This document shows positions 46,665 through 51,190 of a stretch of DNA of 64,000 nt, in pieces. This DNA is from an uncultured Verrucomicrobiae bacterium. GTDB lineage: Bacteria > Verrucomicrobiota > Verrucomicrobiia > Limisphaerales > UBA11358. The notes beneath the pieces are model-generated. The model did no database searches and had not been told where the DNA came from. It saw only the letters and a list, made by a program, of their open reading frames with translations. How positions within the stretch are numbered: the first letter of the stretch is position 1; each line of letters opens with the position of its first letter. A program made the translations under genes and the position numbers. Location: assembly GCA_963804345.1 (NCBI GenBank), contig CAWDPX010000015.1:119147-183146 (forward strand), written 5' to 3'.

Positions 46665-47048
46665 TTACGCCTTTGCCAGAGTGGCGGCGGGCTTGGCCTT
46701 TAGCGCGTTCTTGGCGATGGTCACCAGTTCGCCAAACGCGGCGGCATCGGTGGCGGCGAGGTCGGCGAGCACCTTGCGGTCGAGCGCGCACTTGGCGGCC
46801 TTGAGGCCTTCAATAAAGCGGCTGTAGGTGAGGCCGGCGGCCCGGGTGGCGGCGTTGATGCGCACCTGCCAGAGATAACGGAAGGTGCGTTTTTTGACGC
46901 GGCGGTCGCGGTAGGCGTATTGGCGGCCGTGGTCAACGGCGTCGGAGGCGTAGCGGTAAAGGTTGGAGCGGCGCGCACGGTAGCCTTTGGCGGCTGTGAC
47001 CATCCGTTTGCGGCGTTTGCGGGAGGCGGCGGCGTTGGTAACTCGCAT
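46665..47048 (-). CDS. rplT: 50S ribosomal protein L20
   Basis: MRVTNAAASRKRRKRMVTAAKGYRARRSNLYRYA..AYRDRRVKKRTFR.LW..RINAA. Confidence 0.95.
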   Translation of the reverse strand: MRVTNAAASRKRRKRMVTAAKGYRARRSNLYRYASDAVDHGRQYAYRDRRVKKRTFRYLWQVRINAATRAAGLTYSRFIEGLKAAKCALDRKVLADLAATDAAAFGELVTIAKNALKAKPAATLAKA

Positions 47049-47085: not shown

Positions 47086-47295
47086 TCAATGGCTGAACGG
47101 CAGATTTTGCGTGATGCGATACGCGTCGGTGGGATCCACCGTGGCTGAGCCACGGAGATGGCGCCGGCGCTTGGGATTCTTGGTCTGGGCCAGGTGGCGG
47201 ATGCCGGCGTGGTGGAACCGGACTTTGCCTGTGCCAGTGATCTTGAACCGCTTGGCCACGGACTTTTTCGTTTTGATGCCTTTGGGTCGTCGCAT
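47086..47295 (-). CDS. rpmI: 50S ribosomal protein L35
   Basis: MRRPKGIKTKKSVAKRFKITGTGKVRFHHAGIRHLAQTKNPKRRRHLR. Confidence 0.9.
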   Translation of the reverse strand: MRRPKGIKTKKSVAKRFKITGTGKVRFHHAGIRHLAQTKNPKRRRHLRGSATVDPTDAYRITQNLPFSH

Positions 47296-47374
47296 AAATC
47301 TTAATTACAAAAGAGCGCAAACTATACGCGGCGACAGGCGCTGAGGCAAGCGCCATTTTTGAATTAATCAAGAG

Positions 47375-49117
47375 GGGCGGCGGACAAAATTCTTCATCAG
47401 GCGGACAGGGAGAGAGTGTCATTGCGTTTGGCGTGTTGATTGAGCCGGTGTTTCCAGAACGGGTCCCAGCGCCGACTGCTGTGGATGCAACGCAACGCCA
47501 GCACGTTTTCTGCACCGGGCAGGGACCAGAACATGCCTGATTGTTTGCAGCGCGCGCCGATGACCGTCTTGCAGCCAGCCTCCACGACGCCCGAACCGAT
47601 AAAGTAACCTGCGGCGCGAAAGGAGCCATACTGCATGCGCTGGATATTGCGCTCAAAATAACCCAATTCCTCCCCCACGACTTGCGCTTGCGGTTGACCG
47701 AGGCAAGCTTGGCGGGTTTCTTTAATCAGCGACTCGACCTTGTCTTTGAGCAATCGCCTGGCCCAACGTCGCTGCCGGGTTTTGTGGTCCGGATGGTTTT
47801 TGCCCAGCAGGGCGTCGAGTACTCGGCCCGCGTGTTCCAGCGCATGATAAAAGTCCACGACCTGCACACAGCCTTTGAAGCAGTCTTTGCCCATGTTCTC
47901 CAAACCGGTGGCGCCGTCGATCAAGAGCACGGTTTTTCCTGCTGTGGCCAAGCCTCGGCGCAAGGCTTCCTGGCGCAGAATGGGGCCAAACTGGTCAATG
48001 GATTGGAAGCTGGAAACATAGGTGGTGGATTCATGGTCCCGCACGGGATGGCCTTTTTCATCCGTCCGATGCTGCGTAAAAACACAGCCCAGATAAACCT
48101 GGCGGGTCTTGGCCGTGCCGTCGGGTTGTTTGCCCGCCCTTCCGGCCAACTCCTTGGGGCGCATGGGCACACCGGTGCCATCGGCGCTGACATACATAAT
48201 GGGCGCGTCGCACCGGCCGGGTTGGGCCTGGCGCTGCTGCCAAACTTGCGCGTCCTGGCCCACTCGTTGCACGACGCGCTGGATTTGCCGGGCCGACACC
48301 TGGATGGCACCGGTTTCGGCCAGATGCCGCTCCGCTTTTTGGTAGCCTGTCTCATCGGCGCCCTCCAAACAGATCAGCCGGGCCAAAGCGGGCGTGTAGC
48401 CAACCTCCAGACCCAGCGCCGCATCGGCTGGATAGTGCCCCTGTTTTTTGCCCTCATGGTAGTAGTAGTCGCGCTCCAGTTGGAAGGTGCCAAACAAACC
48501 GTCCACCCGCAGGCACTCCCGTCCTTTGCGCTGCTGGCCGGGTGCGGGCTGATAGGCGGCATCGACACGGTCGGCCGCTTGTTGGAGCAGCCATTGCACC
48601 AGCGCATTGGCGGGCTTGAAGATGGCGGTGCGCACCAGCACTTCCAACTGCTGCACCGCCAAGCCGTTGGGCGTTTGCCCGCCAAAGTGCGCCATCAACT
48701 GTTGGATTTCCTGCTCTTGGGCCAGGAGGAGTTGTGGCGTGGGGTCTTTTTTTTTGCGCCCGCCACTCGCTCGGCGCGGGTTTTTTCCACCATGAGTTGC
48801 ACGTATTGCGCCATCAGTTCCTGGACCTGACGGTAGCCATCGATGGCGGCCTTGAGGTCGGGCACCTGTTCCGGGGGCACGTAGCGGGAAACGTTGCGGC
48901 CATTTTCATAGCATTGGTGATTATAGTAGGGCCCTTGCGGCCCTTGGCGAAGCACACTGATGGTGCCGCGATCCAGACGCTGGATTTGGGCGATGTCGTT
49001 GAGGAGCGATTGCGGAGTGGATTTGGTATTCATGGCCGGAAGTATATGTGTATGCCATATACCAAGGCAATAAAAAAAAGGCTAAAAACTGATTTTGAAG
49101 AATTTTGTCCGCCGCCC
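47375..49117 (-). mobile_element. Complete ISKra4-family-like insertion sequence (1743 bp) with 22-bp perfect terminal inverted repeats and a 9-bp target-site duplication
   Basis: IRL GGGCGGCGGACAAAATTCTTCA (47375-47396) and IRR TGAAGAATTTTGTCCGCCGCCC (49096-49117). Direct repeat AATCAAGAG at 47366-47374 and 49118-49126. Confidence 0.85.
47397..49033 (-). CDS. IS transposase encoded as two overlapping ORFs (112 aa plus 433 aa) joined by a -1 frameshift at A_AAA_AAG
   Basis: OrfB ..YVSADGTGVPM.., ..LLIDGATGLEN.. and ..GSGVVEAGCKTVIGARCKQSGMFWSLPGAENVLALRC..RWD.FW match my recollection of ISKra4 transposases. The OrfA frame reads GCA AAA AAA AAG at 48757-48746; the -1 frame continues KKDPTPQLLLAQEQEIQQLMAHFGG. 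Confidence 0.75.
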
Positions 49118-49180
49118 AATCAAGAGTCAACACGCGATGGCAGGGCAAACCGGCCGGTTAGCCCGGATTTGGTGGTGTCA

Positions 49181-49343
49181 AGGGCGTGTTGCCCAAATGG
49201 AACGGAGCGCGGGTGTCCCACCCGCAGCAGCCAGGATTGCCATATGAGCGCACAAAATTCCACGGGTTTTGGGGTTGTCGAACGTGCTGCGGCTGAGACA
49301 GCCGCGCTCCGCCGTCTCCAAACTGATTTGGGCAACACGCCCT
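49181..49343. repeat. Palindromic intergenic element bounded by 18-bp perfect inverted repeats (AGGGCGTGTTGCCCAAAT / ATTTGGGCAACACGCCCT)
   Basis: Direct reading. Inner arms GGAGCGCGGGTGTCCCACCCGCAGCAGCC.. / ..GGCTGAGACAGCCGCGCTCC. Confidence 0.6.
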
Positions 49344-49408
49344 CAAGTTGCGCCCAATCGAGAAGACGGTCATCGGTCCCAAGGCGGAATTCAGGTCATT
49401 CCGTCAAC

Positions 49409-51190
49409 CTAGGGAGCATAAACCGATCGGTAGAATCGCTTGCCGAACTGGCTCGCGTTGGTATCCACAAATGTAAACGGAGCGGTATTGGTCTGCAATG
49501 GAACCCAATTCACGAAATCGGTGGAGGCCTGGACGATGTACTGGCATCCCGGCACACCGCCAACGGTCATGGTGTACTGGCCGCTGGCATGGCCAACCGG
49601 GGCCAGGGAGCCCGCTACCGTGGCATAGACGGTCAAGACGGCGGTGCTATTGGTCGAACCGTTCCCGTCGGTCACCGTCACCGAATAGACACCGGATTGA
49701 TTGGTGACAATGTTTTTCAACGTCAACAACGAACTAACCGACGAAGACAGATTGGTGCCATTGAATTTCCATTGGTATTTCAAAGTCCCGCTGCCGGTGG
49801 CGCTTACGGAAAAGGCCTTGGTCTGGCCGACCAAGGCGGCCTGGTTGGTCAATTGACAACCCAGCAGGGGCCGCCCGGTGACCGTCACAGTGAACGTGCG
49901 GGTCACGATATTGTTGCTCTTTCCACCATCATTGACCATAACGGTAATCATTACCGTGCCGGTCTTGTTGAGCGCCGGCTTGAAGGTCAGGGAGCCCGTG
50001 GTGTTCGGACTGGTATATTTGACCGTCGGCTTGGGAATCAATGTGCCACTGCTGGAAATTGCGGCTACAGTCAGCGTCTGGGTTTCATTGGCCGCACCGG
50101 AGGTGATGCCGGACAGATTCACCGTTTGCGCGCTGGCATTCTCAAAGATGGCAAGGTCGCTGATGGCGTTCAACGTCGGCGGCTGGTTCACGGCGTTGAC
50201 CGTGACCGTAAAGGTCCGGGTGACATTGCTGTTACTTGTCCCACCATCGTTGACGGTGACGGTGACGGTTGCCGTCCCGGTTTTGTTGGCCACCGGCACA
50301 AGGGTCAGGGAGCCAGTGCTGTTCGTGCTGGTGTAATTCACCGTTGGATTTGGAATCAAACCCGTGTTGCTGGAAACCGCAGTGACGGTCAGCGTCTGGA
50401 TTTCATTGGCCGCACCGGAGGTGATGCCGGACAGATTCACCGTTTGCAGCCCGGAGTTTTCGCTGATGGTCAGGTTGCTGATGGCGCTCAACGTCGGTGG
50501 CTGGTTCACAGCGTTGACCGTGACGGTGAACGTGTTCGTGACGGAATCAACGCCGCCGTTGGCCGTGCCACCATTGTCATGGACAACCACCGTGACCGTC
50601 GCCGTGCCGAACGCATTCGTTACCGGCGCAAAGGTCAGGGAGCCAGTGCGGTTCGTGCTGGTGTAATTCACCGTTGGATTGGGAATCAAACCCGTGTTGC
50701 TGGAAAACGCAGTCACGGCAAGTGTCTGATTTTCATTGGTCGCCCCGGAGCTAATGCCGGATAAACTGACAGTTTGCAGCCCGGCGTTTTCATTGATGGT
50801 CAGATTGGTGATCGCATTCAACGTCGGCGGTTGGTTCACAATCGGAACATTCAAGGGAACCAGGTAGGACACCTCGCTTGACAACGGACTTTCCAGGTCC
50901 GAAGAAGCAAACGTTGTCGCCGCAAAGTAGTAGGTGGCTCCCGGGACCAGGCTGGAAATGGTTGTATTGGTTACGTTGCCAGCACAAATCTTGTTGGTAT
51001 AGGCACCGCTGGCTCCCCCGAAATATACGTTGTAACCCGCAACATTTGGATCAGTGCAGGCGTTCCACGCCAACGTTACACTCCCGGCCGCGAAGGCGGA
51101 AAGCTGCATAACTGAAAACAAGACGCTGAAGAAAAAAGACCCGAAAATGGTGCGTCTTGACCGAATTAATACTTGCACTTGGTACATCAC
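49409..51190 (-). CDS. Secreted adhesin-like protein: FN3-like module, three tandem cadherin/Ig-like repeats of about 106 aa, one Ig (I-set-like) domain, and a conserved C-terminal module
   Basis: Signal peptide. The repeats begin NQPPTL[NS]AI[ST][ND]L.I.EN... and end TFTVTVNAV. Ig-like segment ..FSVSATGSGTLKYQWKFNGTNL..SGVYSVTVTDGNGS. Confidence 0.7.
   Translation of the reverse strand: MMYQVQVLIRSRRTIFGSFFFSVLFSVMQLSAFAAGSVTLAWNACTDPNVAGYNVYFGGASGAYTNKICAGNVTNTTISSLVPGATYYFAATTFASSDLESPLSSEVSYLVPLNVPIVNQPPTLNAITNLTINENAGLQTVSLSGISSGATNENQTLAVTAFSSNTGLIPNPTVNYTSTNRTGSLTFAPVTNAFGTATVTVVVHDNGGTANGGVDSVTNTFTVTVNAVNQPPTLSAISNLTISENSGLQTVNLSGITSGAANEIQTLTVTAVSSNTGLIPNPTVNYTSTNSTGSLTLVPVANKTGTATVTVTVNDGGTSNSNVTRTFTVTVNAVNQPPTLNAISDLAIFENASAQTVNLSGITSGAANETQTLTVAAISSSGTLIPKPTVKYTSPNTTGSLTFKPALNKTGTVMITVMVNDGGKSNNIVTRTFTVTVTGRPLLGCQLTNQAALVGQTKAFSVSATGSGTLKYQWKFNGTNLSSSVSSLLTLKNIVTNQSGVYSVTVTDGNGSTNSTAVLTVYATVAGSLAPVGHASGQYTMTVGGVPGCQYIVQASTDFVNWVPLQTNTAPFTFVDTNASQFGKRFYRSVYAP

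Follow-up and report, generated by a model that had tools for sequence, protein, structure and literature searches.

Gene content and boundaries of the element

The window analysed here is a stretch of 64,000 nucleotides from contig CAWDPX010000015.1 (assembly GCA_963804345.1) of an uncultured Verrucomicrobiae bacterium; all positions are window coordinates unless a locus is named. It contains an insertion sequence (IS) of 1,743 bp (47375-49117; 47366-49126 with its flanking direct repeats) whose transposase gene is divided between two open reading frames (ORFs) that overlap, OrfA and OrfB, and that meet at a run of nine adenines (Table 1). The sequence comparisons described below make it very likely that the element is an ISKra4-family IS, intact and recently inserted, with a transposase made by programmed -1 recoding at the conserved A-run.

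The element is sharply delimited. An initial annotation of the window had reported perfect inverted repeats (IRs) of 22 bp and a 9-bp direct repeat (DR) on both flanks, and both hold: in a direct comparison the two terminal arms are complementary at 22 of 22 positions, and the 9-bp repeat AATCAAGAG is exact (the chance that a given 9-mer matches is about 4e-6). Within the 64-kb window the IR pattern matches these two sites only, with no match in 100 shuffles, and the search for this pattern found no further copy of the IS in the window. Relatives of the element have the consensus IR GGGYGYRRGACAAAATTCTTC and a length of 1,725-1,780 bp, and perfect 9-bp target-site duplications (TSDs) flank at least 16 elements, the window copy included. 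With GGGCGG... termini, a 9-bp DR and a length of 1,743 bp, the window copy has the ends, repeat length and size of the ISKra4 group (GGG ends, 9 bp, about 1.5-2.0 kb).

The OrfA codons at the junction read GCA AAA AAA AAG ACC (minus strand), as initially annotated, and the A9 run together with G48746 forms two in-phase heptamers, A_AAA_AAA and A_AAA_AAG. A -1 step after AAG, with G48746 read a second time, continues as KKKDPTPQLLLAQEQEIQQLMAHFGGQ... and gives the product of about 545 amino acids that had been proposed: it has exactly 545 residues, ends 22 nt from the IS end and has the predicted junction peptide ...AGAKKKDPTPQLLLAQEQEIQQLMAHFGGQ.... This fused product scores 249.1 bits against the NCBIfam model NF033572 'ISKra4 family transposase' (cut-off 205; residues 167-523), which secures the earlier description as ISKra4-like, and OrfA matches the Pfam domain DUF6788 (PF20586). 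The T9 of the run on the plus strand is the sole A/T run of nine or more in the 64-kb window (0.13 expected).

Table 1. Features of the IS and of its insertion site, in order of position
Feature	Position	Strand	Remarks
rplT ORF	46665-47048	-	
rpmI ORF	47086-47295	-	
Host sigma-70-type promoter of rpmI-rplT, TTGCCT-17-TATAGT	47321-47349	-	promoter scan; likely insertion target feature
9-bp TSD AATCAAGAG	47366-47374		copy adjoining the 3' end of the transposase gene; exact repeat of 49118-49126
Terminal IR, transposase-distal (3') end	47375-47396		outer end starts GGGCGGCGGACAAAATTCTTCA; 22/22 complementary to 49096-49117
OrfB-frame coding segment	47397-48746	-	449 codons plus stop at 47397-47399; reached, in the proposed reading, when the OrfA frame shifts by -1 on the A-run
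OrfA, 112 amino acids	48695-49033	-	DUF6788 at residues 1-92, KKK linker, zero-frame tail of 16 codons, TGA at 48697-48695
A9 run of the coding strand (T9 on plus), putative recoding site	48747-48755	-	conserved in related junctions
Candidate transposase promoter in the IS leader, TTGCCT-18-TATACT	49041-49070	-	consensus scan; 8 nt upstream of the OrfA ATG (49033)
Terminal IR, transposase-proximal (5') end	49096-49117		complementary to the other arm
9-bp TSD AATCAAGAG, second copy	49118-49126		exact repeat of 47366-47374

Conservation of the split in related elements

A search with one genome per species found 235 relatives, of which the best 80 loci were kept; 76 of these could be analysed at the junction, and a comparison of the OrfA-like and OrfB-like frames at each locus resulted in 61 non-redundant junctions. 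The hosts of the 80 loci are mostly metagenome-assembled genomes (MAGs) of Verrucomicrobiota; a few bins carry other labels, such as Planctomycetota, Acidobacteria or Desulfobacteraceae. The two-ORF layout with OrfB in the -1 frame is present in 54 of the 61 junctions: 45 have A9, eight have A8 and one (L051) has a degenerate run, A5GAAG, so that an A9 or A8 run stands at the same place in 53/61. Three further junctions have A8 with OrfB in +1 (L009, L015 and L059) and four are fused (A10 in L004 and L042, A7 in L005, and L017, which has A9 in the phase in which relatives have A8). The run is retained in loci whose OrfA identity to the window is as low as about 31-35%. At the protein level, dozens of OrfB-only clusters (90% identity) of exactly 432 amino acids, 77-94% identical, are among the top matches to the fused product, and nearly all of the top 120 OrfA homologue clusters have exactly 112 amino acids. 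As both the run and the -1 layout are kept in diverged relatives, the split is not a broken gene: the alignments indicate that it is a conserved property of a clade and not a lesion.

This decides between the two options that the initial annotation had left, programmed recoding (frameshifting or slippage) and a one-base inactivating indel, in favour of the former: the run and the -1 layout are present in 53/61 junctions, 45 of which have the A9/-1 layout. It had also suggested that A8 or A10 homologues with a continuous ORF, and a run that is not conserved, would point to a mutation; what we found is the opposite, with fused A10 and A7 variants as rare, derived tips. An inactivating deletion, or a homopolymer sequencing error, within a single-ORF gene is not without arguments, as homopolymers are prone to errors and A8 combined with a +1 offset occurs at three related loci. 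Two of these stem from MFD-named MAG assemblies, which we assume to be long-read and hence prone to homopolymer errors; one MFD-MAG locus with A8/+1 has sibling copies with A9. However, the A9/-1 layout comes from many independent assemblies, among them presumably short-read ones to judge from contig names (k141_, NODE_), the same layout recurs across hundreds of OrfA (112 amino acids) and OrfB (432 amino acids) protein clusters, and the window element has perfect IRs and a TSD. The recurrence in many assemblies and protein clusters refutes a deletion or error as general explanation, and we give it practically no weight for the window either.

Entry into the OrfB frame

Directly after the run, the codon-position entropy in frame B is 0.70/0.43/1.01 for positions 1/2/3, and a frame-B peptide, K[DE]P.P..LLAQ[DE].EIQ.L, is conserved, while the frame-A tail is not; this codon pattern indicates that frame B is under purifying selection from the run onwards. 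At more than ten loci a TAA made up of the base before the run and its first two A's stops frame B, and the frame change must therefore occur inside the run.

A different arrangement is suggested by the end of OrfA: its TGA overlaps an ATG of the OrfB frame as TGATG (48695-48699), and in many close relatives a 432-amino acid OrfB is called from there. OrfB could be translated from this ATG by termination-reinitiation, with OrfA and OrfB acting as two subunits. However, the ATG of the annotated OrfB is replaced by ATC (Ile) in about 40% of the split relatives, with no conserved alternative start, the 17 codons between run and ATG are conserved as frame-B protein with variation at third positions, and the natural fused variants join the two frames exactly at the run. 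Translational coupling at TGATG was rejected as a general mechanism because the ATG is not conserved and the frame-B codon pattern extends upstream of it. We regard two separate subunits as very improbable; an independently started OrfB could be a minor product in the window.

Fused variants and activity of split copies

Behind the database proteins of about 545-550 amino acids, the size of the complete transposase, lie an A10 run (P0093, P0005/L096), an A9G with a G after it (L097) or an A8 with a nearby compensating change (P0001). For all fused or aberrant loci that could be scored (all but L015), the nearest OrfB neighbours belong to the split A9 type, with identities of 86% (L004 to L029), 87.5% (L005 to L016), 99.9% (L009 to L007/L008), 85.6% (L017 to L057/L058) and 73% (L042 to the L07x group). 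Fusion must therefore have arisen repeatedly, and the fused forms appear to be derived, by changes in run length, from split ancestors.

Both forms seem to be mobile. The collection has P0093 (A10, constitutively fused), as an identical protein of 547 amino acids, in 52 of its blocks, and the neighbouring genes differ among the ten loci listed (L081-L090). These data point to a fused lineage with a wide spread across peat or soil metagenomes; with so many different neighbours the fused gene should be transposition-competent. As for split copies, JAXGQW01 has six with A9, all 100% identical in OrfB, and the two closely related MAGs CAVRCI01/CAVUDH01 have nine with A9 that are 95-100% identical, seven of which have each a different perfect 9-bp TSD (where the ends could be scored); in CAVWKA01, two of three copies are A9. 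Because identical copies with distinct TSDs occur within single genomes, split copies apparently transpose.

These data also bear on phase variation at the DNA level, with A9 as the OFF state and replication slippage to A10 or A7 as the ON state that supplies transposase, possibly in trans, to the A9 copies. Fused A10 and A7 variants do exist in nature, P0093 with its many flanks in many samples is apparently competent, and homopolymers are prone to replication slippage (PMC3711429). However, the copies that multiplied recently are A9 and not A10 (6/6 in JAXGQW01, 9/9 in CAVRCI01/CAVUDH01 and 2/3 in CAVWKA01), fused forms account for 4/61 unique junctions at scattered tips, and IS transposases generally prefer to act in cis (PMC5009743). 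We consider phase variation improbable.

Protein architecture

An AlphaFold2 model of the fused product, made with an alignment of 33 fused homologues, has a mean confidence (pLDDT) of 78.8. Its N-terminal module is compact, with three strands (24-52) between a first helix (residues 7-15) and a long second one (54-92), and is followed by a linker (residues 92-105, pLDDT <50, predicted to be disordered) that contains K94-K96, encoded by the run; after the linker, model and family match place a helical DNA-binding region and a DDE catalytic core. The best Foldseek matches of the model are transposase complexes of ISCth4 (IS256 family; E=8e-9 to 7e-6), and the predicted fold is the IS256-related Mutator-like DDE fold expected for a p-MULT enzyme.

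OrfA modelled alone (pLDDT 84) has an alpha-beta-beta-beta-alpha topology in its DUF6788 part (residues 1-92, 48758-49033). This is also the topology of double-stranded RNA-binding domains (dsRBDs). We found no mention of DUF6788 in the literature searched. Four single-ORF members of the ISKra4 group that we checked (ISCasp2, ISCasp3, ISBeg3 and ISAcas3) start directly with the helical region and have no DUF6788-type module, and the next-closest 50%-identity representatives (35-45% identity, 420-440 amino acids) align only from query residue ~123-130 on, which makes the DUF6788 domain look like an addition specific to this clade.

Transcriptional slippage or ribosomal frameshifting

The initial annotation had proposed A_AAA_AAG as the slippery site. 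The heptamer is indeed in phase, but the unit that is conserved is larger, a run of 8-9 A's: among the split junctions (n=54), 83% have A9 and 15% A8, and the degenerate L051 has the sole shorter run. The codon in front of AAA AAA AAR ends in A in 39/54 split junctions, with six codons in use (TCA, GTA, GCA, TTA, CTA and ATA, for Ser, Val, Ala, Leu or Ile), and A at the wobble position has a frequency of 13% overall and 2-8% in those codon families. The encoded KKK is invariant inside a linker that is otherwise variable and modelled with low confidence. This pattern indicates that the length of the run is itself selected, beyond the heptamer.

A downstream stimulatory structure, which the initial annotation had proposed to look for, was not found in conserved form: RNAalifold predicts 0 pairs in the aligned relatives, and the minimum free energy (MFE) hairpin that lies about 7 nt after the run in the window has weak fold z-scores (-0.65 and -1.1) and is not maintained across 29 relatives (62% paired vs 60% in shuffles). 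A conserved downstream frameshift stimulator was rejected on these grounds. Upstream of the run there is no consensus structure (mean z -0.13), and inspection by eye of the aligned junctions revealed no consistent Shine-Dalgarno (SD)-like element.

A GC-rich hairpin of the window, CGCGCC...GGCGGGCGC (48756-48795, minus strand), is predicted to close at the start of the A-run. An MFE hairpin that closes at most 4 nt from the run was found in 38/54 sequences vs 30.7 ± 3.4 in shuffles, a count not controlled for phylogeny. This excess is a weak hint at a stimulator of slippage in the nascent RNA, of the kind described for an IS630 element of Roseiflexus (PMC5009743).

For IS elements, a conserved A9 or A8 run in combination with a conserved two-ORF layout has been published as the signature of transcriptional slippage (PMC1088944, PMC3711429). 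The run is kept at a length of 8-9 A's, beyond that of the heptamer, and no stimulatory structure is conserved, and for these two reasons we lean, by a modest degree and given that recoding occurs, towards transcriptional slippage as the main route.

Several points weigh against slippage. Mixed +1 and -1 directions among orthologues are a criterion for slippage, while one dominant direction suggests programmed ribosomal frameshifting (PRF; PMC3711429): with only 3/61 junctions of the A8/+1 type, two of which are perhaps homopolymer errors, directions are barely mixed. Eight unique split relatives have only A8, and the A5GAAG of L051 keeps A_AAG and is a poor template for slippage. A run of 8-9 A's always holds an in-phase X_XXY_YYZ, to which the ninth A adds a tandem heptamer, and selection on length is hence compatible with PRF too. 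Finally, the junction counts are not phylogenetically independent.

The same observations are the case for a purely translational route, in which ribosomes shift by -1 on A_AAA_AAG or A_AAA_AAA, as they do in IS3, IS1 and E. coli dnaX, while slippage of the polymerase is negligible. This alternative touches the route alone and leaves programmed recoding in place. In its favour, the window and every split relative have an in-phase heptamer, the direction is -1 in 54/57 unfused unique junctions, and A_AAG is retained in the eight A8 relatives and in L051. What speaks against it is that neither a conserved downstream hairpin or pseudoknot nor a consistent upstream SD-like element is present in the aligned junctions, and that A is fixed at positions beyond the minimal heptamer. 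In addition, the classical IS elements that use PRF (IS911, IS150, IS1) have A6G or A6C and not A9. A_AAA_AAG is exceptionally shifty in E. coli because this organism lacks a tRNA-Lys(CUU); a tRNA scan was negative for any tRNA in the window and for tRNA-Lys in 60 related loci. PRF as the only route appears rather unlikely to us, although it deserves to be taken seriously, and mixed or other routes make up the remainder.

Insertion target

The transposase gene reads towards rpmI, and the -35 box (TTGCCT) of the host promoter starts 25 nt past the IS end (9-nt TSD + 16 nt). Relatives show a similar spacing: TTGNNN starts 27 nt past one IS end (9-nt TSD + 18 nt) in 13/32 flanks (background 1.8% per position), and TTG is found at an offset of 25-28 in 15/16 elements, with the box on either side of the element. 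The flanks thus indicate that insertions of the clade keep a fixed spacing to -35 boxes, in the window upstream of the apparent rpmI-rplT promoter.

Some related copies lie directly upstream of tRNA genes (L073, 2763-2844; L078, 4740-4814; L026, 4723-4983; tRNA-Leu, tRNA-Glu and tRNA-Phe), and such insertions are consistent with a targeting of strong promoters.

Leader and neighbouring ORFs

Just upstream of the candidate transposase promoter the IS leader has a T8 on the transposase strand (A8 on the plus strand, 49072-49079), which could be an UP-like element or chance. The IS is adjoined by an ORF of 593 amino acids (49409-51190, minus strand) that has an N-terminal hydrophobic segment and, according to the ORF listing, at least three tandem repeats of about 95 amino acids with the pattern …NQPPTL.AI.NLTI.EN.G.QTV.LSGI.SGA.NE.QTL.V.A.SSN..LIPNP.V.Y…; its sequence suggests a repeat protein that is secreted or located at the cell surface. 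Two long ORFs on the plus strand are antisense to the transposase, one of 429 amino acids (47541-48830) and one of 676 amino acids (48734-50764). The latter crosses the IS end and the TSD and therefore cannot be a real gene of either unit; both are most likely chance ORFs of GC-rich DNA.

Proposed mechanism and implications

Standard expression of the element would yield OrfA, with 112 amino acids, as DUF6788 domain with a short tail, presumably a non-catalytic regulator or a protein that binds the DNA ends. In a minority of events the frame would move to -1 within GCA AAA AAA AAG, to give the 545-amino acid OrfAB, the active transposase. Two routes could lead to this protein, and the product would be the same: RNA polymerase may slip on the T9 of the template and add one A, resulting in an mRNA with A10, or ribosomes may slip by -1 on A_AAA_AAA/A_AAA_AAG. 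By analogy with IS1, IS3 and IS911 (model in PMC5009743), OrfA is probably the non-catalytic regulator or end-binding protein and OrfAB the transposase. We infer the molecular route, the efficiency and the regulatory role of OrfA from these comparisons and analogies.

A wider reading is possible, somewhat short of probable, and we offer it tentatively: the A9 run would be a dedicated slippage switch in a large, undescribed, promoter-targeting ISKra4 clade centred on Verrucomicrobiota, with an acquired DUF6788, possibly nucleic-acid-binding, and would set the ratio of regulator to transposase. Matches of the OrfA fold to dsRBD or PUR-like structures in the PDB are not significant (best E=0.02). 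If the wider reading is true, one more IS family would use programmed transcriptional realignment, and DUF6788 would gain a function.

There are also practical consequences. In hundreds of database entries this transposase stands as two pieces, one called 'DUF6788 hypothetical protein' and the other, truncated, 'ISKra4 family transposase'; with the recoding site recognised, these can be annotated as one orfA/orfAB gene, with DUF6788 as N-terminal domain of an IS. The ISKra4 group would join the IS families with programmed recoding at A-runs (IS1, IS3, IS5 and IS630 in the review list), and the natural series of A8, A9, A10 and A9-then-C junctions is useful for separating slippage from ribosomal frameshifting. 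Given the insertion near the rpmI-rplT promoter, activity of the clade may affect highly expressed genes in Verrucomicrobiota. None of these findings overturns current understanding.

Comparison with known systems

The ISKra4 family comprises the ISAzba1, ISMich2 and ISKra4 groups, with Mutator-like transposases of p-MULT 4 (Guérillot et al. 2014, PMC3942029). In that study a conserved, predicted -1 frameshift was restricted to the ISMich2 group and sigma-A promoter targeting to the ISKra4 group (PMC3942029). The expectation of the initial annotation that ISKra4-family transposases are usually single ORFs is accordingly correct for the ISKra4 and ISAzba1 groups and does not apply to the ISMich2 group, with its predicted -1 frameshift (PMC3942029).

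Like the ISKra4 group, the window element passes the NF033572 cut-off, shares with its clade an insertion upstream of -35 boxes at a fixed spacing, and has GGG termini, a 9-bp DR and a length within 1.5-2.0 kb (as ISAcas3, ISAcce1 and ISCasp2/3; PMC3942029 Table S1). It differs in that the described members have a single-ORF transposase whereas the window transposase is not a single ORF, its N-terminal module being in a separate frame that joins at the A9 run, and in its hosts, which are mainly Verrucomicrobiota, a phylum absent from the list in PMC3942029. With the ISMich2 group it shares two ORFs and a -1 shift that restores the full-length transposase, a likeness that does not by itself place the element there. 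The promoter targeting seen here has been reported for the ISKra4 group only (PMC3942029).

ISMich2 elements are about 1.25-1.4 kb long with 8-bp DRs, as compared to 1.74 kb and 9 bp here.

Other known systems are the IS elements of Deinococcus, Nostoc, Mesorhizobium and others with slippage at A9/A8 (Baranov et al. 2005, PMC1088944), together with dnaX of Thermus thermophilus. These IS elements have a conserved A9, sometimes A8, at the orfA/orfB overlap, with occasional A8-A10 variants (PMC1088944), and the run of conserved length (8-9 or more A's) that served as criterion in that work is found here in 45 A9 and eight A8 junctions of 61. They belong to other IS families (those listed in PMC5009743 are IS630, IS5, IS1 and IS3), and slippage is experimentally supported for dnaX and some of the IS, whereas the case made here is sequence-based.

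IS3/IS1-type PRF systems (IS911, IS150, IS1, E. coli dnaX) also have the in-phase A_AAA_AAG and, in the IS elements, the orfA/orfB overlap, and in the general model OrfA is the N-terminal DNA-binding and regulatory part and OrfAB the transposase (PMC5009743), to which we liken the products proposed here. The window clade differs from them in that it has no conserved downstream stem-loop or pseudoknot and no upstream SD-like stimulator, that its run is longer than the heptamer and selected as such, and that its transposase is of an unrelated superfamily. TnGBS and ISLre2 (p-MULT 3) resemble the clade in that they insert upstream of sigma-A promoters with a short, fixed spacing, often beside genes that encode tRNAs or are highly expressed; they are of a different p-MULT family, and TnGBS are conjugative elements. 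To our knowledge, no recoding has been described for TnGBS or ISLre2.

The 2016 review of recoding lists IS1, IS3, IS5 and IS630 as families that use frameshift events (PMC5009743), and within the ISKra4 family recoding was previously only predicted, and for another group (ISMich2). The class of mechanism, -1 recoding at an A-run that joins orfA and orfB, is well known; the instance is a new, large and mostly uncultured clade which, as far as its sequences tell and with ISMich2 compared by description alone, combines the traits of the ISKra4 group with a two-ORF layout.

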